Shown here piece after piece: positions 20,860 to 28,123 of a stretch of 60,824 nucleotides of DNA. This DNA comes from Myxococcota bacterium (lineage in GTDB: Bacteria > Myxococcota > XYA12-FULL-58-9 > JALHOP01): positions 1-60,824 of the forward strand of contig JBGGMJ010000047.1 in NCBI GenBank assembly GCA_041288095.1, written 5' to 3'. Within the stretch, counting starts at the first letter, position 1, and the number at the start of each line of letters is the position of its first letter. A program made the translations under genes and the position numbers. The notes beneath the pieces are model-generated. The model did no database searches and was not told the origin of the DNA. It saw only the letters and a list, made by a program, of their open reading frames with translations.

Positions 20860-21543
20860 CTAGGTGCCTCCGTGGATTTTCCCGGTGCTTGGGTCATCGT
20901 CCGGCACAGTCGGCCGATCGGGAATTTTCGCCCCGGCCTCCGCGAGATCGGCCTGCGCGGCTTGCACCCCAGCCTTTGCGGCGCCGTAGGCCGGGCGCTG
21001 CTCGAGCGCCGCCTCGCCGGTAGCTTCGATCAATGCGGGTGTCGGCCGCCCCATGAGGAGTCGGCTGAGGATGGCGTGAGCGTCCGAGAAGATGAGGGAA
21101 ATGCCGTGCAGACCATGCCGAGCCGTCTCGGAGGCGGCACGTGAGTCTTGGTGATGGCGTGCGCGGACGTCTTCGAGCAGGTCGCGGTCGTAGAACTTCG
21201 AATGGCGCAAGATGTCCGTCTGCGCTGTCGTGACGTTCGCGGCCCGCTTCGCAGCTTCCACCGCGCTGCCGGCCCGAGCCCTGCTCATCGCGTGCGAGAC
21301 CTGATTGGTGCGCGAGATCACGGCCGCACCGGCCGCGTCGCTCTCGACGGGGATAGGAAGCATTCCTTGGGACACCCCAACTGCTTCCATGAGCTCGGAA
21401 TGGCGCGCAGCCGCGGGGTCGACCGCGGAGCTTGGAGGATGATTGTCGCGTCGCGTTGCCCGCTGCATGGCGCCTACCTCGGCATCAAGACCGGTTCCGC
21501 TGGACACGAGGCGCCCGACGGGTGCGCGTCGACTGACGCGCAC
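20860..21543 (-). CDS. Hypothetical Ala-rich helical protein (227 aa)
   Basis: Fills the space in a co-directional cluster; S/P/R-rich N-terminus, no Sec signal. Confidence 0.6.
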   Translation of the reverse strand: MRVSRRAPVGRLVSSGTGLDAEVGAMQRATRRDNHPPSSAVDPAAARHSELMEAVGVSQGMLPIPVESDAAGAAVISRTNQVSHAMSRARAGSAVEAAKRAANVTTAQTDILRHSKFYDRDLLEDVRARHHQDSRAASETARHGLHGISLIFSDAHAILSRLLMGRPTPALIEATGEAALEQRPAYGAAKAGVQAAQADLAEAGAKIPDRPTVPDDDPSTGKIHGGT

Positions 21544-21574
21544 CCTCGAGACGCTCGAGTCATTTGCCTCGCTA

Positions 21575-22246
21575 CTAGACCTGCTTGTCAGTCTTCTCGG
21601 CCGGCTTGACGGCTTCGGCTACGACATGACCCTCGCCCTGTGGGGCGGCTGGCTCGCCGGTAGCGGCGTGTTGCTCACCGCTCGCGGGAGCGTGCTCGGC
21701 AGCCTCTTGAGTCGCCGGAACCGGCGCCGGCGGCGGCTCGGACGGAGCCTCGGGGGGCAGCGGCGGAACGGTGACTTCGATCTCGCCGTAGGCCGTCTCG
21801 AGGGGCTGCGAGTAGGCGGCTTTGACACCGGCAACGAAAGCCTCGTTGGCGCCCGGGAAACCCTCGAACACCTTGGCTGCTTCAGCGCTGCGCGACAGAT
21901 CAGCGATGACGCCCTGAATGATGATCGCGGTGGTCGCCTTGGCGAGCGCGTCGGCGCCCAACGCTTGCGCGTTCGGGTGCGCTTGGAGAATCGCGCGGGC
22001 CGCTGCCGCCGCTTGCGCGCGGATGAAGGCGGTCACGCCGTCCTTCAACGCGGTCTCGGCAAAGCCGCTCTTCTTGGCCAGGCCGTTGAGCATCTCGAAC
22101 GTGCTCTTGACCTTGTCTGTCTCGGCTACCGCGGTGGCTTTGACGCCGCCGCCGATGCTGTCGAGCTTGGCGTACGCCTTGTTGGCTTCTTCTTCAAAGT
22201 TGAGCCGAAGCGAAGCGCTCGGCTGATTTCCGGAAACTGCATCCAT
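21575..22246 (-). CDS. Hypothetical helical protein with Pro/Glu-rich tail (223 aa)
   Basis: AGAGG RBS 7 nt before ATG 22246 (MDAVSGNQPSAS…). Confidence 0.75.
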   Translation of the reverse strand: MDAVSGNQPSASLRLNFEEEANKAYAKLDSIGGGVKATAVAETDKVKSTFEMLNGLAKKSGFAETALKDGVTAFIRAQAAAAARAILQAHPNAQALGADALAKATTAIIIQGVIADLSRSAEAAKVFEGFPGANEAFVAGVKAAYSQPLETAYGEIEVTVPPLPPEAPSEPPPAPVPATQEAAEHAPASGEQHAATGEPAAPQGEGHVVAEAVKPAEKTDKQV

Positions 22247-22290
22247 AGCAAAACCTCTTTGCGTCAGTTGTTGCGGCTCAGGCGAGCAAG

Positions 22291-22317
22291 TTATCGAGCC
22301 TGACACGCTGACGTTGC
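22291..22317 (-). promoter_or_regulatory. sigma28-like promoter
   Basis: GCAA-N15-CTCGATAA on minus strand; GCTCGATAACTT repeated exactly 60 bp upstream (22348-22359). Confidence 0.6.
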
Positions 22318-22411
22318 GCCAAAGAGGGCGGGCAGATTGTCTTTTGTAAGTTATCGAGCGTCGGCAAACCCGCGTCCTGTCTGGCCGCCCTGACAAGTGT
22401 GCATGTTCCCG

Positions 22412-22427
22412 AGTGATTTCGATCACA
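22412..22427. promoter_or_regulatory. CRP-type binding site
   Basis: AGTGA-TTTCGA-TCACA, 9/10 match to TGTGA-N6-TCACA, intergenic. Confidence 0.55.
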
Positions 22428-22456
22428 GGTGCGCGTGACGCCGTGAAACCGCGGCC

Positions 22457-23656
22457 TTAGCGCATCGGGCGGGGCTCAATCCACGGGCTTGGCCGCACTG
22501 CGTCGAGCACCGGTACGCTCTTGCAGACATCGCTCAGCTCGAAAATCGACAGCATTTCTGGAGCCGTGGTCCGGCGGCTGAAGAGGGCGGCGTCGAGGCG
22601 CGCATCCGCGACCAGCCCATCGCAGGCCCGTCGCATGTGATTCCAGAACATGATGGGGTCGCAATGCACGCGCACCGAGCCGCTCGTTGGCAGCGCCTCC
22701 TCGACGATGATGCCGCGCTCGGGCGCCGTAACGAAGGCGATGTGCTCGCAGCGTGAAAAAGCATCGAACATGTCGAGCGAGAGGAAGCGGCCCTCCCCGG
22801 TGAGCGCGGAGTCGCCGGGGTAGAAGGCGGGCGTGAGCTGGCAGAACGCGAAGACGGCGGCGAACGCATAGGCGCGTCGTGTCGCGCGTCCGCTGAAGAA
22901 GTCACCAAAGTCCAAGCTAGCGCCGGCACGCCAGGCAAGCGGGAAGACGCTGAGCAAGCACGCCATCACCAGCGGGTAGAAGTAGCCGACGATGTGCCAG
23001 GAGAACGCGTGGAACATCGCGAGCTGCGCGAGCGTCGCCCAGCGCACCCACCGATGCCGCGATAGCAGACCGAAGACCAGCACGAGCTCGAGGACGACGA
23101 CGTAGGCCAAAGCGAAGCGCTCGAGCAGCGTCCCGGCGAGGACGCTGGGGCGGATCATCGCCGCTCCGGACAACCACTCCACGTTGATCTTGAGCACGCC
23201 TGCGCCCACGTAGAACGCGACCAGCGCCGTCTGCGCCACATCGAGCCGGCGCGGTGCCATCAAGTAGGCGATCGTGGCCATGAGCGGCATGTCGTGGAAG
23301 TTGCCCATGAACCTGAAGTCCTGGGCGATCACCCCGAGCTTCACGACCGTGAGCAGGGCGAGACCGCCAAGAGCCACGCGGCGAAAGCGGCGGGTTAGGA
23401 ACAGGGCAACGACCAGCGCCGCGCACATCGCATAGATGGCGAGCCCGGTGTCCGCGAATGCGCGCAATAGCGGACGATACGCCTCGCAGTCCGGGAGCTG
23501 CGGCCAGCAGATGGCGCCGTCACGCTTGGCGATACGCGGCAGCATCTCTCGCCAGAAGTAGACGGTGAGGAGATGGGTCGCGGTGAGCGCGGCCCCGAAC
23601 CATGCGGACGCGGTGTCCGCACCGCGTGATTCAGCCGCCGTCACCGTCGCCGTCAC
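22457..23656 (-). CDS. HTTM-domain / vitamin-K-dependent gamma-carboxylase-like membrane protein
   Basis: Multi-TM; GNFHDM, FYVGAGVLKINVEWLSG, FHAFSWH, GEGRFLSLDMF; GGAGG RBS before GTG 23656. Confidence 0.7.
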   Translation of the reverse strand: MTATVTAAESRGADTASAWFGAALTATHLLTVYFWREMLPRIAKRDGAICWPQLPDCEAYRPLLRAFADTGLAIYAMCAALVVALFLTRRFRRVALGGLALLTVVKLGVIAQDFRFMGNFHDMPLMATIAYLMAPRRLDVAQTALVAFYVGAGVLKINVEWLSGAAMIRPSVLAGTLLERFALAYVVVLELVLVFGLLSRHRWVRWATLAQLAMFHAFSWHIVGYFYPLVMACLLSVFPLAWRAGASLDFGDFFSGRATRRAYAFAAVFAFCQLTPAFYPGDSALTGEGRFLSLDMFDAFSRCEHIAFVTAPERGIIVEEALPTSGSVRVHCDPIMFWNHMRRACDGLVADARLDAALFSRRTTAPEMLSIFELSDVCKSVPVLDAVRPSPWIEPRPMR

Positions 23657-26018
23657 CGCCGCCTCCACAAGCGCACGAACCGCTGCAGCAGTAGTAGATG
23701 CCGCCGGCGCAGGGCGTGAAGTCGGGCGCGGACGCATCGCCGGGGCAGGCGTGGCTTGCGCCATTGCAGTACTCGACGGCGTCGCATTCCTGCGCCGCGC
23801 CTCGGCACGCGACGCTCGGTGGTTGCACGTTGTCGGGACAGGCGAATGACGAGCCGTTGCAGTAGTCGGCGACATCGCACACGTTGTCGGCGTTGCGACA
23901 GAGGGTGCCATTGGGTCTCGGCGCGCTCGCCGGGCAGGCGGGGCCGCCGCTCGTGCAGTAGGCCGCTTGCTCGCATGGCTGCCCAGGCGAGCGGCAGAGC
24001 GTGCTGCCGTTGTAGAGCGCGTCGCCGGGGCAGGCCGGCGAGCCACCGCTGCACACCTCTTGTGGATCGCATGGACCCGCCGAGCCCCGGCAGACCGTGG
24101 CGCCGCCATAGAGCGTGTTCCCTGGGCAATCGACGCCGCCGTTGCAGGTCTCGGCGGGGTCGCATGGTCCAGCGGACGCGCGGCAAACCTGGCCGGTGAG
24201 GAGCGTGTCGGCGGGACAGGTATTGGCGCTGCCGTTGCACGACTCGGCGACGTCGCACGCTCCAGCGGACGCGCGGCATACGCTGCCCGCGGGAACCTTG
24301 GCGTCCGCTGGACAAGCAGTGCTGCCTCCGCTGCAGGTCTCGGCCGGATCACATACTCCGCCCGAGCCGCGGCAGACGGTGCCCGGCGGGTAAAGGGTAT
24401 CGCCGGGACACGCCGGCGACGAGCCGCTGCAAACCTCTTGCGGGTCGCACGCTCCGCCGGAAGCCCGGCAAACCGTGCCGCCGCCGGTGAGCACGTCCGC
24501 CGGACACGCGACCGAGCCGCCGCACACTTCCGCTGGGTCGCAGCCGCCGGCCGACGCTCGGCAAACCTGACCTGTGCGCAAGGCGTCTGACGGGCAACTG
24601 TCGGCCGCACCGTTGCAGTACTCGTCGGCGTCGCAGGCTCCGGCCGATGCTCGGCACACCGTCGTCGCCGGAGACTTGCTATCGAGAGGACACTGGCCGC
24701 TGCTGCCGTTGCACGTCTCCTGGGGATCGCAGGCACCGGCCGACCCACGACACGACGTCCCCGCCGCGACCAGCGTATCGGCGGGACACTGCGCCCGGTC
24801 GCCGGCGCACTGCTCGGCGACGTCGCATGCGCCGCTCACCGGGCGGCAGGTCGTCTCCGCGCCGCGGAAGCCGTCCGCCGGGCAGCCGACGTTCACGCCG
24901 TCGCAGGTCTCGGCGAGGTCGCAGGGACCGGACGAGGGTCGACAAATCGTGCCGCTGCCTTTGCCCGCGCAGGGTTGCGGGGCATTACAGTCGGCGGCGC
25001 AAACGCCGCTGCAGCATTGCTCGGTCGGCGCGCAGATCGACGTCAGCACGCACGCGTTGGCCACGCACTCGGCGCGCTGGCAAGGACCCGCGAAACAGTT
25101 GTCGGGCCCGCACGGCGGCGGTGTGCAACCGGTGAGCGCGCTAGCCTCGTTCGCGAAAGGATCGCAGGCGCCCGCGCCGCACAAGCTCGAGTCGGGTAGG
25201 TTGCTGCAACCGCCGCCGAAGCAAGCGTCGAGTGTACAGCGGATCGCATCGTCGCAATCCTCGGGGCCGTCGCACTCGGGCATGCGCGCGACGCAGCCGG
25301 CGGGCAGCCGACAATCCATGCCAGCGCCGCACAGCGCGTCGTCGGCTCGCTCGATGCATGTGCCTTCGACGCAGGCGACGCGCGCGCAGGCAACGCCGGG
25401 CTCACAATCGTCGTCGCTCCCGCAAGTCGCCGGCCCGCACGCCGAAGGGTCCAAAGAGCTGCAGCTCGGGGTCACGCATCGTCCGTCATGGCAGACAGTG
25501 GCGTCGAGGGAGTCGCCCGACGAGGGGCACGACATCAGGGTGCAGGAGCGCGTGAGCACCAGCGTTACGTCGGTGTCGGTGCGCACGAAGACGCGGACCT
25601 GCCGGTCCATGATGACGTCGCCGTCCTTGGCGAGCGCGACGCGCGCCGTTCTCATGCCTTCCCGGAGCGCGACGAAGGTGGCGATCGGCCTCGCCTTGTC
25701 GAAGTGCATGGCGACGGTGAGCGGGTAGACGACCTCCGAGCCGTCCTCGAGGATCGTGTGGAGCGCATCGAAGTCGACGACGGGCGCTAGATCGCTTACG
25801 ACGTTGACGGTGAGCACGGCGCTGTACGTGTATGGGGAGTCGTCGATGATGTCGTCGATGGAGCAGCTCGCCGAGCACCTACCGTCGCAGCAGGACTGGC
25901 CGCTCGGACAGTTACCGTCGTTCAGGCACGAGTCTCCCTCGGAGGAGACGAGCTGGCCGATGCCGCAGCCGACGGCGAGCAACAAGCCAGCAATTGTACA
26001 GACGCGGCGCGCTCGCAT
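23631..26018 (-). CDS. Cys-rich lipoprotein with 13 tandem disintegrin-like repeats
   Basis: Lipobox LAVGC; repeats of CRxxxGxCDxxExCxGxxxxCPxD. Confidence 0.88.
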   Translation of the reverse strand: MRARRVCTIAGLLLAVGCGIGQLVSSEGDSCLNDGNCPSGQSCCDGRCSASCSIDDIIDDSPYTYSAVLTVNVVSDLAPVVDFDALHTILEDGSEVVYPLTVAMHFDKARPIATFVALREGMRTARVALAKDGDVIMDRQVRVFVRTDTDVTLVLTRSCTLMSCPSSGDSLDATVCHDGRCVTPSCSSLDPSACGPATCGSDDDCEPGVACARVACVEGTCIERADDALCGAGMDCRLPAGCVARMPECDGPEDCDDAIRCTLDACFGGGCSNLPDSSLCGAGACDPFANEASALTGCTPPPCGPDNCFAGPCQRAECVANACVLTSICAPTEQCCSGVCAADCNAPQPCAGKGSGTICRPSSGPCDLAETCDGVNVGCPADGFRGAETTCRPVSGACDVAEQCAGDRAQCPADTLVAAGTSCRGSAGACDPQETCNGSSGQCPLDSKSPATTVCRASAGACDADEYCNGAADSCPSDALRTGQVCRASAGGCDPAEVCGGSVACPADVLTGGGTVCRASGGACDPQEVCSGSSPACPGDTLYPPGTVCRGSGGVCDPAETCSGGSTACPADAKVPAGSVCRASAGACDVAESCNGSANTCPADTLLTGQVCRASAGPCDPAETCNGGVDCPGNTLYGGATVCRGSAGPCDPQEVCSGGSPACPGDALYNGSTLCRSPGQPCEQAAYCTSGGPACPASAPRPNGTLCRNADNVCDVADYCNGSSFACPDNVQPPSVACRGAAQECDAVEYCNGASHACPGDASAPDFTPCAGGIYYCCSGSCACGGGGDGDGDGG
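23715..24944 (-). repeat. 13 tandem approx. 93-96 bp coding repeats (disintegrin-like)
   Basis: Counted from the translation; units 4-6 and 8-10 look like a higher-order duplication. Confidence 0.85.
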
Positions 26019-26099
26019 CCCTAGAAGCGTACAGCATCCGCCGTCGCGCGGCTGTCGGCGTTCTTCACGCGCGAGCGCGCAGCCGCTTGCAGGTGACCT

Positions 26100-27380
26100 G
26101 TGAGGCTCGCTTTCGGCGTCTACGCCGCTGCTGTCGTGTTGGCAGTGATGTGGGTGTCGGTAGGTCAGCTGGGGTCTTCGCCGAGCCCGAGCGCGCCGCG
26201 GGTCGAGCTCGTGCGCCGCATGCCCGCCTACGAGCCGCGCCCGCTCACGCCCGTGACCTCGGCGTATCGCGTCGACGGCCGCCACTCCGGGGTCAGTACG
26301 AGCGTGGTCCCCTTGCAGCTCGTGGCGACGGCTGTCGGCGCCGGCAACAAAGGCATTCACAGCGCCGCCAAGGGGTCACCCGCCGCCGACGCCAGCGGCT
26401 TTTACGTCGGCACGGACGACGGCCACCTGTACGCTTTCGCGAACGACGGGCATCTCCGCTGGCAGGTCAAGCTCGCGAACGCCGGCCAGGGCGTGCACGG
26501 AACGCCTATGCTCGACGGCGAGCGCGTTTACATCGGCGCCTACAACGGCCGCTTGTATGCGTTCGACAAGAACGACGGCCGGCCGCTCTGGCTCGCCGTG
26601 CTGGGTGATGCCATCGGCGCGTCCCCGACGCCGGACGGCGACGACCTGTTGATTTCCGTCGAAACCAGGGCCCCGAACGGCTACGTCGCGCGCCTGTCGC
26701 GGGCCGATGGCCACGTCGTGTGGCTCTCCGATTGGCTCGGTGAGCAGTCCCACGCCTCGCCGACAGTCGCCGGCGACGCGATCTTTCTCGGTGCCAACAA
26801 CCAAGACTTCTTCGCGCTCGCTCGCTCCGACGGCCATCTCCTATGGCGGACACCAGTCGGAGGCGACGTGAAGGGCACCGCCTGTGTCATTGGTGACGCG
26901 GTCATTGCCATCACCAACGCCGGCACCGCCTTCGCTTTGAGACGTACTGACGGCGGTGTTCTCTGGCGTCGCGAGCTCGGCAGCGAGGGCCGCGGCAGCG
27001 TCTCGTGCCTCGAACAGAGTACGGGCGCCCCCGTATCGGTTGGGCTCGTTTTCGTCACCCTGGGCACGGCGGCCGCGCGCGGGGGCTTCGGCACCTCATA
27101 TGCGCTCGACGCCGCGACCGGCGAAGTGCGCTGGTCGGCTCCCCAAGGCTCTCCCCGCCCGCTCATGAGCCCGCTCGTCGCACCGGACCCTGGCGGCCGG
27201 CTCTTTGCTTGGTTTCGCTGCGACGACACGGCCCTCTGTGCCTACGATGCGTGGAGCGGAGTGCGACTGTCGCACGTCGAGCTCGGCGCGCCTCTCAGCG
27301 GCTCGCCGGTTGTCTATGATGGCGGACTGGTGGTGAGCCTCGACCATCCCGGTGGTATCGTCCGATTGGTGCCCCAATGA
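26100..27380 (+). CDS. PQQ-like (BamB-type) beta-propeller repeat protein
   Basis: Repeated YVGTDDGHLYAF…GHLRW, YIGAYNGRLYAFD…GRPLW, ALDAATGEVRW; N-terminal TM/signal. Confidence 0.88.
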   Translation: MRLAFGVYAAAVVLAVMWVSVGQLGSSPSPSAPRVELVRRMPAYEPRPLTPVTSAYRVDGRHSGVSTSVVPLQLVATAVGAGNKGIHSAAKGSPAADASGFYVGTDDGHLYAFANDGHLRWQVKLANAGQGVHGTPMLDGERVYIGAYNGRLYAFDKNDGRPLWLAVLGDAIGASPTPDGDDLLISVETRAPNGYVARLSRADGHVVWLSDWLGEQSHASPTVAGDAIFLGANNQDFFALARSDGHLLWRTPVGGDVKGTACVIGDAVIAITNAGTAFALRRTDGGVLWRRELGSEGRGSVSCLEQSTGAPVSVGLVFVTLGTAAARGGFGTSYALDAATGEVRWSAPQGSPRPLMSPLVAPDPGGRLFAWFRCDDTALCAYDAWSGVRLSHVELGAPLSGSPVVYDGGLVVSLDHPGGIVRLVPQ

Positions 27381-28123
27381 GAAAGCTCGCGCTTTTCGCA
27401 GTCATGCTCGCTACCGCCGCGGCGGCCGCCTACGCGTTCTGGGACGGCTGGATTCGTTTGAACACGCCGAGCGAGGTCATGTTCCCCGTGCGCGGCATCG
27501 ACGTTTCGCATCATCAAGGCGTGATCGACTGGGAGCGCGTCCGCGCGGCCGGCGTCCGCTTCGCCTACATCAAAGCGAGCGAAGGGGCGGACTTCGTCGA
27601 CGCGAGCTTCGAAGCCAACTGGCGCGGCGCCAAGGCCGCCGGCATCGCTCGCGGCGCCTACCACTTCTTCACGCTGTGTACGCCTGTACGCCCCCAGGTC
27701 GACAACTTCGTCGCCACCGTCTTCGAGGTCGGCGAGCTGCCGCCCGCCCTCGACCTCGAGCTCGGCGGCAACTGCGCCAACCCGCCCGCTGTAGCGGACG
27801 TGAAGGCGATGATCGAAGAGCTCGTGCCGATGATCAGCAAGCGCTTCGGCGAGCCGCCCATCGTCTACACGACGTACGAATTCCGCGAGCTCTACTTGTG
27901 CCCGACCTGCGTCAACGGCTCGCTCCCGCTCTTGTGGATCCGCGACGTCATCTGGAAGCCGCGCCTCACCAACGCCGAGCCCTGGGTGTTCTGGCAACAC
28001 CACAACCGCGGCCGCCTGGACGGCATCGACGGCCCGGTGGATCTCGATGTCTTCCGCGGCGACGTCGCCGCCTTCGGGCGTTATCTCGACGGCCGAAGGC
28101 TCGACATCGTGCGGGGCAAGTAG
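27377..28123 (+). CDS. GH25 lysozyme (muramidase)
   Basis: GIDVSHHQG, FAYIKASEG, RGAYHFF, LDLE, GPVDLDVF; ATGA coupling to upstream gene. Confidence 0.95.
   Translation: MRKLALFAVMLATAAAAAYAFWDGWIRLNTPSEVMFPVRGIDVSHHQGVIDWERVRAAGVRFAYIKASEGADFVDASFEANWRGAKAAGIARGAYHFFTLCTPVRPQVDNFVATVFEVGELPPALDLELGGNCANPPAVADVKAMIEELVPMISKRFGEPPIVYTTYEFRELYLCPTCVNGSLPLLWIRDVIWKPRLTNAEPWVFWQHHNRGRLDGIDGPVDLDVFRGDVAAFGRYLDGRRLDIVRGK

Follow-up and report, generated by a model that had tools for sequence, protein, structure and literature searches.

Organization of the locus

The window, a 60,824-nucleotide stretch of a Myxococcota genome (contig JBGGMJ010000047.1), carries on its reverse strand a gene for a Cys-rich lipoprotein followed by a gene for a polytopic membrane protein resembling vitamin-K-dependent carboxylases (VKGC/HTTM-like), while a PQQ_2 beta-propeller gene lies divergently on the lipoprotein gene's far side from the enzyme gene (Table 1). 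The first GTG of the enzyme gene stands five bases after a GGAGG and 26 nt within the lipoprotein reading frame. However, the length of the overlap is uncertain, 26 or 14 nt, because the relative L002 (84% identical) lacks the first GTG and keeps as its start only another GTG in the same frame, at 23644. In another relative, L001, the enzyme gene begins with ATG, and its overlap with the lipoprotein stop is 11 nt long. Thus, the overlap with a GGAGG ribosome-binding site that the first-pass annotation had read at this junction is borne out, and an overlap is kept in each of the three enzyme-bearing genomes of the genus (the source genome, L001 and L002). Such retention is also how a functional pair would be expected to look. 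We conclude that the lipoprotein and enzyme genes are coupled in translation, which shows co-expression here and not a substrate relationship.

Table 1. Features of the locus, with positions counted from the first nucleotide of the window
Feature	Position	Strand	Details or basis
VKGC/HTTM-like polytopic membrane protein	22457-23656	-	399 aa (GTG 23656) or 395 aa (GTG 23644)
R290 codon (at GGCX Y395 position)	22787-22789	-	alignment mapping
H216 codon (=GGCX H287)	23009-23011	-	alignment mapping
E190 codon (=GGCX D263)	23087-23089	-	invariant column and alignment mapping
W161 codon (=GGCX W223)	23174-23176	-	invariant column and alignment mapping
K156 codon (=GGCX K218)	23189-23191	-	invariant column and alignment mapping
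H121 codon	23294-23296	-	GNFH motif
N119 codon	23300-23302	-	invariant column
Lipoprotein/membrane-protein junction	23631-23666	-	GGAGG 23666-23662, GTG 23656, lipoprotein TGA 23633-23631
Lipoprotein gene	23631-26018	-	795 aa, 98 Cys; ATG at 26018, TGA 23633-23631
13 tandem disintegrin-arm (Da-like) repeats, ~32 aa each	23736-24944	-	residues 359-761, regex count
PQQ_2 (BamB-like) beta-propeller with N-terminal membrane anchor	26100-27380	+	Pfam PQQ_2, E 2.3e-33

The membrane protein is distantly related to vitamin-K-dependent carboxylase

The Pfam HTTM profile (PF05090) gave no match to the membrane protein at E<=1 and none across the whole source genome, in which no canonical HTTM protein was matched; in the VKGC-like family to which the protein belongs, the profile produced only sub-threshold matches in 6 of 39 members, the best with an E of 3.2e-4. 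Similarly, a sequence profile of the family found no GGCX chain, that is, no chain of the human enzyme, in the PDB. More sensitive comparisons nevertheless connected the two: hhalign aligned the family with 15 canonical bacterial HTTM proteins over 370 columns (probability 97.5%, E 8.2e-12), and the alignment of these canonical proteins in turn matched GGCX with an E of 9.4e-80. The AlphaFold model of the membrane protein (pLDDT 90, pTM 0.89) points in the same direction, as all 16 of the 16 best Foldseek matches were GGCX, with E values down to 2.6e-7. VIA-align placed the model over its whole length on residues 47-508 of human GGCX (model residues 10-399 on GGCX residues 57-508) with a Z of 18.4 and an rmsd of 4.0 A over 357 residues; the 16 GGCX entries scored Z 12.8-18.4 and the next unrelated fold 8.7. 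In the Atlas, the structure matched a cluster with HTTM and VKGC_lumenal_dom at a TM of 0.78. Since HTTM stays below threshold and the profile finds no GGCX in the PDB, the homology rests on profile-profile comparison and predicted structure. The kinship with HTTM/VKGC proposed by the first-pass annotation therefore stands on the hhalign result and the modelled GGCX fold, whereas the Pfam HMM search left it unmatched, and a distant relationship to HTTM/VKGC proteins, including the human vitamin-K-dependent carboxylase, is supported at this level.

Compared with human GGCX, the membrane protein is ~13% identical and much shorter (399 vs 758 aa): it ends where GGCX residue 508 aligns, and the region beyond, including the C-terminal domain, is absent. 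Its residues 290-399 make up a small periplasmic domain that holds four out of six Cys invariant in the family, which suggests that the C-terminal part is, like that of GGCX, non-cytoplasmic and disulfide-bonded. The canonical HTTM proteins of bacteria (PF05090 together with PF22777 VKGC_lumenal_dom, ~460 aa) share its architecture and length class, but they keep the N-H pair in the GGCX register and match GGCX by sequence, which the VKGC-like family does not. The family comprises ~940 clusters at 50% identity, and no Pfam domain was found on the enzyme part of the members seen. Judged by alignment and modelled structure, the protein belongs to a branch of the carboxylase superfamily that is new and has no name.

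Residues of the quinol half of the active site are retained

In three sources (PMC12647623, PMC13187478, PMC13486548), K218 of GGCX is described as the general base acting on the quinol, with W223 stacking, D263 as relay and H287/N290 at the quinone, and Asn159, His160 and Tyr395 as the residues holding the substrate Glu. The motifs singled out in the first-pass annotation, AGVLKINVEW (K156) and GNFH (N119, H121), are indeed present in the membrane protein, and the human counterparts it named were found in the GGCX chain alignment as IAGVKKLDADWV and WNNHSY. Bridged by hhalign, K156 corresponds to K218, W161 to W223, E190 to D263 and H216 to H287, with S219 at the N290 position and Y227 at that of F299. 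In 39 of 39 members of the family K156, W161, N119 and E190 do not vary, and S219 is invariant too; H216 is found in at least 90% of them, and the M401 equivalent is also conserved. Thus, the residue set of a quinol epoxidase is present, with Asp263 replaced by Glu and Asn290 by Ser. According to PMC13486548, the former change in GGCX (D263E) keeps 25% of activity, and viral VKGC-like epoxidases carry a Glu at this position, as does E190 here.

The Glu-holding site is kept in part. In the hhalign register N119 falls at N159, F120 at H160 and an invariant R290 at Y395; with the register shifted by one, H121 equals H160 but Y, F or Q stands at N159, so that N159 and H160 are never both matched. 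From the alignment, R290 and N119 could hold a carboxylate. In PMC13187478, H160 is called indispensable for linking carboxylation with epoxidation. Because the Glu-holding residues are conserved only in part, and no counterpart exists of the C-terminal domain past residue 508 that binds the propeptide, propeptide-tagged gamma-glutamyl carboxylation is not implied.

Within the first periplasmic loop, two Cys, C50 and C57, form a pair that is invariant in the family. C99 and C450 of GGCX form a structural disulfide, and in the alignment C50 lies one residue from the C99 position and C345 two residues from C450; because of this nearness, the family Cys may be structural.

The lipoprotein repeats fit the consensus of a structural calcium site

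The N-terminus of the 795-aa protein, MRARRVCTIAGLLLAVGC, contains a lipobox (LLLAVGC, Cys18) that, read by eye from the sequence, fits [LVI][ASTVI][GAS]C, and the protein reads as a predicted lipid-anchored bacterial lipoprotein. The lipobox is followed by a knot rich in Cys at the N-terminus, a domain of ~110 aa without any Cys, a middle part again rich in Cys and the 13 repeats, counted with the regex CRxxxxxC[DE]xxXxC. Pfam Disintegrin (PF00200) matched in 12 stretches (E 9.9e-44; score 148.4 bits, where the cut-off is 35.1), in each repeat only by its C-terminal half (profile positions ~28-45 to 75 of 75); phmmer with the lipoprotein found no match among PDB chains. As in the Da subdomain found in ADAMs and in P-III SVMPs, then, the repeats match Pfam Disintegrin, but the lipoprotein has only the C-terminal half-domain, in 13 copies head to tail, lacks a metalloproteinase domain and is lipid-anchored and bacterial.

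Regex counting confirmed the first-pass statement that 11 of the 13 repeats carry a Glu in CDxxExC, the remaining two reading CEQAAYC and CDVADYC. PMC4885070 gives CD(X)2(E/D)XCXG(X)4C(X)2(D/N) as the consensus of Ca2+ site III, a buried structural site in the disintegrin domains of ADAM and snake-venom proteins, and 12 of the 13 repeats conform to it when the (X)4 gap is relaxed to 3-4 residues. Since it belongs to this consensus as described there, the CDxxExC Glu is no sign of carboxylation. Moreover, a Glu occupies the same position in 55 of 57 disintegrin repeats from four genomes without any HTTM-type match. The eukaryotic ADAMs and SVMPs with these domains are not known to be Gla proteins. 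We conclude that, taking the consensus as that source gives it, the structural Ca2+ site explains the conserved Glu.

With this lipoprotein included, the source genome codes for at least five paralogous lipoproteins that are rich in Cys and have disintegrin repeats; disintegrin-repeat ORFs occur on six of its contigs, and the VKGC-like enzyme gene only once. At least four paralogues sit away from any VKGC-like enzyme gene, and these have 5-9 repeats each that match the site III consensus. The paralogues are 40-48% identical over their length with similar N-termini, and comparison with them revealed no residue or motif peculiar to the linked copy, the Glu/Asp preference being equal.

Linkage of enzyme and lipoprotein is confined to one genus

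A disintegrin protein was found upstream of the VKGC-like gene in 2 of 80 loci, both from relatives 79-84% identical, so that the linkage fails outside the genus when checked for conservation elsewhere, as the first-pass annotation had advised. In a sample of 151 genomes of the phylum, disintegrin repeats occur in 55 and the VKGC-like family in four, three of them from one genus; 51 of the 55 repeat-bearing genomes are without the family and 29 without any HTTM-type match. Canonical HTTM proteins, present in 64 of the 151 genomes as against four for the VKGC-like family, are no commoner where repeats are present (23/55) than where they are not (41/96). Taken with the Glu that persists in genomes without an HTTM-type match, these counts do not support the enzyme-substrate pair that the first-pass annotation had suggested. 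The link to the lipoprotein is either accidental at the level of the genus or was recruited recently.

A beta-propeller recurs beside the family

A PQQ_2 propeller adjoins the VKGC-like gene in 35 of 80 loci. It is missing from the flanks of the other 45, where neighbours such as Thioredoxin_9 and pentapeptide proteins are found, and is thus not a universal partner. Enzyme and propeller are joined in a single frame in L051 and L061, and PQQ_2 (PF13360) is fused in 16 of the 150 best representatives of the family, namely 15 of the 16 long representatives scanned (nine of 780-814 aa) and P0045. Human GGCX has no such partner. At L003, a relative 46% identical, the divergent propeller gene is the immediate neighbour and no lipoprotein gene intervenes, while in the source genus the lipoprotein copy occupies the divergent gap between the enzyme and propeller genes. 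Thioredoxin_9 genes stand beside the family at 7 loci by Pfam and 13 by BLAST clustering; these run convergently instead of in the same orientation and belong to related genomes. An LMF1-family neighbour was seen at L016 and a DoxX neighbour at L038.

Interpretation

We consider it probable, from alignments and the predicted fold, that the membrane protein represents a VKGC-like branch that keeps the quinol half of GGCX and is partnered by a propeller, and that the lipoprotein, linked only in this genus, is not its dedicated substrate. Of the GGCX active site, it keeps the half for quinol binding and deprotonation, and the enzyme would draw on menaquinol and O2 to form, within the membrane, a strong oxygenated base, which would then deprotonate, and perhaps carboxylate, a substrate presumably on the periplasmic side. 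The source genome has menA and menD above their cut-offs and two VKOR homologues. The family's functional partner is probably the periplasmic PQQ_2 beta-propeller, encoded by the next gene or as a C-terminal fusion; in the source genus it would be the divergent propeller gene, and the lipoprotein gene appears to have been inserted between these two ancestral partners.

That the membrane protein is instead a gamma-glutamyl carboxylase with the lipoprotein as dedicated substrate, the CDxxExC Glu becoming Gla and strengthening Ca2+ binding, draws on the overlapping coupled genes kept in the three enzyme-bearing genomes, on the VKGC-like fold with its K218, W223 and D263 equivalents, on N119 and R290 as possible carboxylate ligands and on the menaquinone genes; an unfolded lipoprotein would, furthermore, cross the inner membrane, and its Glu should therefore be accessible before folding. 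We regard it as very unlikely, since the linkage is limited to two close relatives, most repeat-bearing genomes lack the family or any HTTM-type match, the Glu belongs to a buried site III consensus that recurs in genomes without HTTM matches and in the unlinked paralogues, N159 and H160 are not matched together, and the GGCX region past residue 508 is gone. A broader version, in which enzyme and propeller form a periplasmic menaquinol/O2 protein-modification machine, a prokaryotic analogue of the vitamin K cycle whose quinone the two VKOR homologues would recycle, recruited here to carboxylate or otherwise alter the Ca2+-binding surface lipoprotein, appears quite unlikely. Should such recruitment prove functional, Gla-type modification of a protein would be seen for the first time in bacteria.

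Alternatively, the lipoprotein may be a lineage-specific client of the enzyme-propeller module that receives a modification other than Gla formation at the Ca-site Glu, for instance carboxylation or oxidation on another residue or on the lipid anchor. The translational coupling and the position of the lipoprotein gene exactly between the partner genes would fit, and there are precedents, likened here by description, that keep K218 chemistry on known or proposed non-Gla substrates (PMC12647623, bioRxiv 10.64898/2026.08.19.745780, PMC13486548). MloH of Streptomyces, from malonomycin biosynthesis, acts on a polyketide-peptide intermediate, in which it carboxylates an aspartyl residue (as cited by PMC12647623 and bioRxiv 10.64898/2026.08.19.745780), and for the fusions of epoxidase and desaturase in giant viruses, lipids are the proposed substrates (PMC13486548); their partners, as described there, are polyketide/NRPS machinery for the former and a fused desaturase and VKOR for the latter, whereas the VKGC-like family has a propeller. 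Still, conserved linkage is missing for this reading as well, the family must have other substrates elsewhere and no motif sets the linked copy apart, so we think it unlikely. We find similarly little probability in a quinone-linked thiol-disulfide or redox component of the MauE/DoxX kind, serving the oxidative folding of Cys-rich proteins such as the 98-Cys lipoprotein. MauE (PF07291) is the best Pfam match of the membrane protein, though sub-threshold (19.7 bits against a cut-off of 27, residues 140-223), and gives sub-threshold matches in 11 of 39 family members; feature neighbours in the Atlas are labelled MauE or DoxX, the C50/C57 pair is invariant, and Thioredoxin_9, LMF1 and DoxX genes occur nearby. 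However, MauE and DoxX are proteins of far smaller size with no C-terminal lumenal domain, the modelled structure resembles GGCX much more strongly, and the invariant K/W/E/H set is the quinol-deprotonation site of GGCX and not a thiol site. Also, the Cys may be structural, two VKOR homologues for disulfide formation are already present in the genome, and the thioredoxin neighbours are convergent and from related genomes.

Returning to the propeller-partnered branch, its recognition corrects an attractive but weak substrate inference, since the repeat Glu belongs to a structural Ca2+ site. It also defines a separate, unannotated branch of the superfamily that keeps the quinol-activating residues of GGCX; in the literature covered, MloH is the only relative cited with a defined reaction. 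Finally, the recurrent and sometimes fused propeller gives a concrete enzyme-propeller two-component system to test.

An overlapping gene pair for a disintegrin-repeat lipoprotein and a carboxylase-like membrane protein

The lipoprotein begins with MRARRVCTIAGLLLAVGC, which reads as a lipobox-bearing lipoprotein signal peptide, and matches the Pfam Disintegrin family (PF00200) in 12 stretches with an E-value of 9.9e-44 and a score of 148 bits (cut-off 35). By regular-expression count it holds 13 tandem repeats of about 32 amino acids, CRxxxxxC[DE]xxXxC (residues 359-761, window positions 23736-24944). As the first-pass annotation had observed, 11 of the 13 carry CDxxExC, the remaining two being CEQAAYC and CDVADYC; the gene overlap and the motifs AGVLKINVEW and GNFH that it described in the membrane protein, here called the enzyme, were likewise confirmed. 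A phmmer search of the lipoprotein against PDB chains gave no match at E<=0.001, NCBIfam gave nothing meaningful on either protein, and a literature search on disintegrin, Myxococcus and cysteine-rich repeats listed no paper dealing with these repeats.

The overlap of the two genes is real and conserved, while the precise start of the enzyme is uncertain. The related locus L002 (84% identical) retains only an alternative in-frame GTG, at 23644, and in a second related locus, L001, the enzyme starts with an ATG that gives an 11-nt overlap with the lipoprotein stop. Three soil-metagenome DNA runs, all from one study, contain the stretch; no RNA run is among the listed carriers. Scanning of 21400-27500 gave zero promoter-like sites and a single terminator-like site (26382-26399, +), which lies within the propeller gene and falls below shuffle counts, and hence is uninformative.

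Features of the window and of other contigs (C-numbers) of its genome
Feature	Location	Strand	Remarks
ORF, 283 aa	21575-22426	-	30 bp downstream of enzyme gene; gene status doubtful
Enzyme gene	22457-23656	-	GGCX-like membrane protein
Enzyme RBS and start	GGAGG 23666-23662; GTG 23656	-	GTG five bases on; 26 nt inside lipoprotein frame
Lipoprotein gene	ATG 26018 to TGA 23633-23631	-	795-aa ORF, 98 Cys
PQQ_2 (BamB-like) beta-propeller	26100-27380	+	PQQ_2 E 2.3e-33; N-terminal membrane anchor
GH25 muramidase gene	27377-28123	+	Pfam Glyco_hydro_25 E 6.4e-37
ORF, 392 aa	28126-29304	-	Convergent with GH25; PAP2-superfamily sub-threshold (E 6e-4, 20 vs 27.2 bits)
Paralogous disintegrin-repeat ORF	C34 1157-3457	+	
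Paralogous disintegrin-repeat ORF	C85 1703-4009	-	
Paralogous disintegrin-repeat ORF	C181 11138-13339	-	Lipobox-like N-terminus
Paralogous disintegrin-repeat ORF	C152 25875-27938	-	Lipobox-like N-terminus
Disintegrin-repeat ORF	C167 24881-26869	-	Weaker match
VKOR homologue 1	C1 20076-20465	+	Above Pfam cut-off
VKOR homologue 2	C187 55459-55884	-	Above Pfam cut-off

The enzyme is related to the HTTM/VKGC superfamily

The first-pass annotation had called the membrane protein carboxylase-like; this was correct, and the relationship is detectable only by profile and structure comparison. The Pfam HTTM match that had been proposed as a check did not appear on the window's enzyme, on which Pfam found only a sub-threshold MauE (19.7 vs 27 bits), and a bridge alignment was needed. 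Scanned singly, the 39 family members of our alignment A1 gave weak Pfam matches to HTTM in 6 cases and to MauE in 11. A family sequence profile run against PDB chains did not find GGCX, the human vitamin-K-dependent carboxylase, its only hit being a chance match to a single transmembrane helix (E 0.97), and homology was therefore reached through A2, an alignment of 15 canonical HTTM proteins encoded in genomes of this phylum: hhalign matched A1 to A2 over 370 columns with a probability of 97.5% and an E-value of 8.2e-12, and A2 matched GGCX with an E-value of 9.4e-80. An AlphaFold2 model of the enzyme built on A1 (pLDDT 90.0, pTM 0.89) had GGCX as all 16 of its best Foldseek matches (E from 2.6e-7). 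VIA-align superposed model residues 10-399 on GGCX residues 57-508 with Z 18.4 and an rmsd of 4.0 A over 357 residues, Z ranging over 12.8-18.4 for the 16 GGCX entries and being 8.7 for the next fold. Finally, an ESM Atlas model of the enzyme matched, with a TM of 0.78, a cluster all of whose members are HTTM plus VKGC_lumenal_dom proteins. Thus, three independent lines, namely the AlphaFold2 model comparison, the A1-A2-GGCX bridge and the ESM Atlas match, place the enzyme in relation to HTTM/VKGC.

The enzyme is a member of a well-populated unnamed family. A word-indexed search matched 168 proteins at E<=1e-3, the best 120 of which are nearly all 'hypothetical', with a Pfam domain (PF13360) on two longer ones only; an exhaustive search of 1.84 billion representatives matched 940 clusters at E<=1e-3, of which 781 remain at E<=1e-10 and 515 at E<=1e-30. 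Invariant in all 39 members of A1 are C50, C57, N119, K156, W161, G164, E190, F215, S219, Y227, P228, Q273, G287, R290, M296 and D298, together with four C-terminal cysteines, C303, C332, C345 and C378.

The quinol-activating half of the active site is conserved

Residues were mapped by chaining the A1-A2 and A2-GGCX alignments, chain 9wfn_A index plus 31 giving the human numbering, which was checked on K217/K218, W223, D263 and C99. By this mapping K156 corresponds to GGCX K218, the general base on the quinol; W161 to W223, which stacks on K218; E190 to D263 of the acid-base relay; H216 and S219 to H287 and N290, both at the quinone C1 carbonyl; Y227 to F299, which stacks on CO2; and M296 to M401, whose main chain contacts K218 and bicarbonate (roles as given in the available portions of PMC12647623, PMC13187478 and PMC13486548). 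In the available text of PMC13486548, GGCX D263E has 25% activity left and Glu stands at the D263 position in giant-virus epoxidases. At the Glu-holding positions hhalign placed N119 at N159, F120 at H160 and R290 at Y395, and family members have F, Y or Q where H160 aligns; shifting the register of the sequence alignment by one residue brings H121 to H160 but loses the N159 match. The window's enzyme ends where GGCX reaches residue 508 and has no counterpart of the remainder, the C-terminal domain included. Judged from the alignments, the quinol-activating ('epoxidase') half of the GGCX-type site is conserved, and the carboxylase-specific half appears altered.

In the window's own genome menA and menD were found above cut-offs, with men genes on contig C83, and genes of the futalosine pathway gave no match. 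A quinone cofactor for the enzyme is plausible in this genome, given menA, menD and the two VKOR homologues. The men genes and the VKOR homologues are parts of a quinone/quinone-reductase cycle.

The lipoprotein is not a conserved partner of the enzyme

The first-pass annotation had proposed that the two proteins may form an enzyme-substrate pair, in which Glu of the lipoprotein would be carboxylated or the protein otherwise modified. Conservation does not support such a pair. Among 80 loci encoding the enzyme family, drawn from one-genome-per-species contigs, a homologue of the lipoprotein occurs in L001 and L002 only, both from near relatives (enzyme identity 79% and 84%). An upstream same-strand ORF is present in 74 of the 80 loci, the other 6 having no upstream sequence or ORF, and only in L001 and L002 does it combine a high Cys content (>10%) with the repeat motif, none of the remaining 72 being of this kind. 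In a sample of 151 genomes of the phylum, disintegrin repeats were found in 55, canonical HTTM in 64 and the enzyme family in 4, namely the window's own genome, two of the same genus, which are probably those of L002 and L001 (equal adjacency, equal identities), and one from another family without a disintegrin match. By hand tally, and with related genomes being non-independent, 23 of the 55 genomes that have disintegrin repeats also have canonical HTTM, as do 41 of the 96 that lack the repeats; neither HTTM type occurs in 29 of the 55 (hand tally).

The window's own genome (90% complete) has one enzyme gene as against disintegrin-repeat ORFs on six contigs. Its paralogous ORFs span 688-769 amino acids (stop to stop) with 84-95 Cys; those on C152, C34 and C181 align almost end to end with the lipoprotein of the window at 40-46% identity, and that on C85 aligns at 48% over a 384-aa segment. 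No VKGC-like gene adjoins these paralogues. Co-occurrence across the 80 loci and 151 genomes thus gave no linkage beyond the genus, and outside it the lipoprotein is not the partner of the enzyme.

The Glu of the repeats has another explanation. The disintegrin 'arm' of ADAM and snake-venom metalloproteinases contains a Ca2+ site III with the consensus CD(X)2(E/D)XCXG(X)4C(X)2(D/N), whose Ca2+ is deeply buried and not removed by EDTA, according to the available part of a structural review (PMC4885070). This consensus is present in 12 of the 13 repeats of the window's lipoprotein and in 5-9 repeats of each unlinked paralogue. We also compared four genomes, G121, G046, G053 and G077 (90-98% complete), that have many disintegrin matches and neither HTTM type (canonical at E<=1e-5, enzyme family at E<=1e-10). 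Glu occupies the position in 55 of their 57 frame-fitting repeats, the others having Ala and Asp once each; a fifth region (L125, genome G135) had no frame-fitting repeat and so stands outside this count. Since the Glu is kept in these genomes and belongs to the site III consensus, it is a feature of the fold rather than the mark of a carboxylation substrate.

Conversion of the lipoprotein's Glu to Gla by the enzyme is therefore highly improbable. In its favour, the genus keeps the translational coupling, the lipoprotein would pass through the membrane before folding, and a carboxylate could be bound by R290 and N119. On the other side, the idea has no conservation support and the Glu, one of its two sequence arguments, is accounted for by Ca2+ site III. 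A client relationship of any kind, for which the same points count, is rather less improbable though still unlikely. In B. subtilis the HTTM protein SdpB is required for maturation of a toxin peptide, and a Leptospira orthologue reportedly has epoxidase activity without carboxylase activity. Among microbial and viral precedents, MloH acts, and giant-virus epoxidase-desaturases are proposed to act, on non-Gla substrates, as described in the available portions of PMC12647623, bioRxiv 10.64898/2026.08.19.745780 and PMC13486548.

A beta-propeller is the recurrent partner of the enzyme family

In 35 of the 80 loci the enzyme gene has a PQQ_2 beta-propeller gene beside it, in most cases immediately next and in the same orientation. 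Enzyme and propeller form a single reading frame in L051 and L061, the only true fusions among the 80 loci; L004 and L008 were rejected as fusions, their long ORFs being a different frame across the enzyme gene. Among the best 150 representatives, PQQ_2/PF13360 follows the enzyme part in 16: the representative P0045 and 15 of the 16 long proteins that were scanned, nine of these being 780-814 aa in length. The 805-aa representative P0154 is an example of a natural fusion. The window's propeller and lipoprotein genes diverge, with 81 bp separating their starts. Enzyme and propeller diverge in L003 (46% identity), with nothing between them. The simplest reading, we infer, is that the enzyme and propeller genes are ancestral partners and that, in this genus, a copy from an expanded lipoprotein family came to be inserted between them.

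The GH25 start overlaps the propeller stop as ATGA (27377-27380, +), and the GH25-propeller-lipoprotein-enzyme block is retained in L001 and L002. The 283-aa ORF beyond the enzyme has no Pfam match and no homologue in the 80 loci, its one weak match being L117 (37% over 129 aa).

The other 45 loci have different neighbours. Thioredoxin_9 is one, in 7 loci by Pfam and 13 by clustering; in L017, L018, L039, L042, L044, L047 and L056 (Rokubacteria/Methylomirabilota-type) this gene is convergent and just downstream of the enzyme. L016 has an LMF1-family membrane protein upstream of the enzyme gene and L038 a DoxX protein downstream. In Bdellovibrio-type loci the gene directly upstream of the enzyme encodes a secreted protein of pentapeptide repeats, about 200 amino acids long (22 loci by clustering, 4 of 5 tested by Pfam), as in L005, L009, L058, L062 and about 20 others, and a small lipoprotein precedes it in 15 loci. 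Operons there run from lipoprotein through pentapeptide protein and VKGC-like enzyme to propeller, and the first two proteins are candidate substrates. Bdellovibrio bacteriovorus, a culturable species, carries the pentapeptide protein-enzyme-propeller operon in the strains of L058, L062 and L065.

In A3, an alignment of the window's propeller with those of 24 loci, conservation is unusually strong at an N-terminal motif around NxGIHxASKSSPxxDxSGxYVGSD; other His, Lys and Glu residues are invariant as well, and two Cys are paired near the C-terminus. Conservation of this degree exceeds what one would expect of a purely scaffolding BamB-like propeller.

Literature searches on bacterial HTTM, on HTTM with beta-propellers and on VKGC orthologues in Leptospira listed no paper that describes the family or its propeller partner. 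We conclude that the family is the more solid novelty: it forms a branch of the VKGC superfamily that lacks annotation, keeps the quinol-activating site and is partnered by a beta-propeller.
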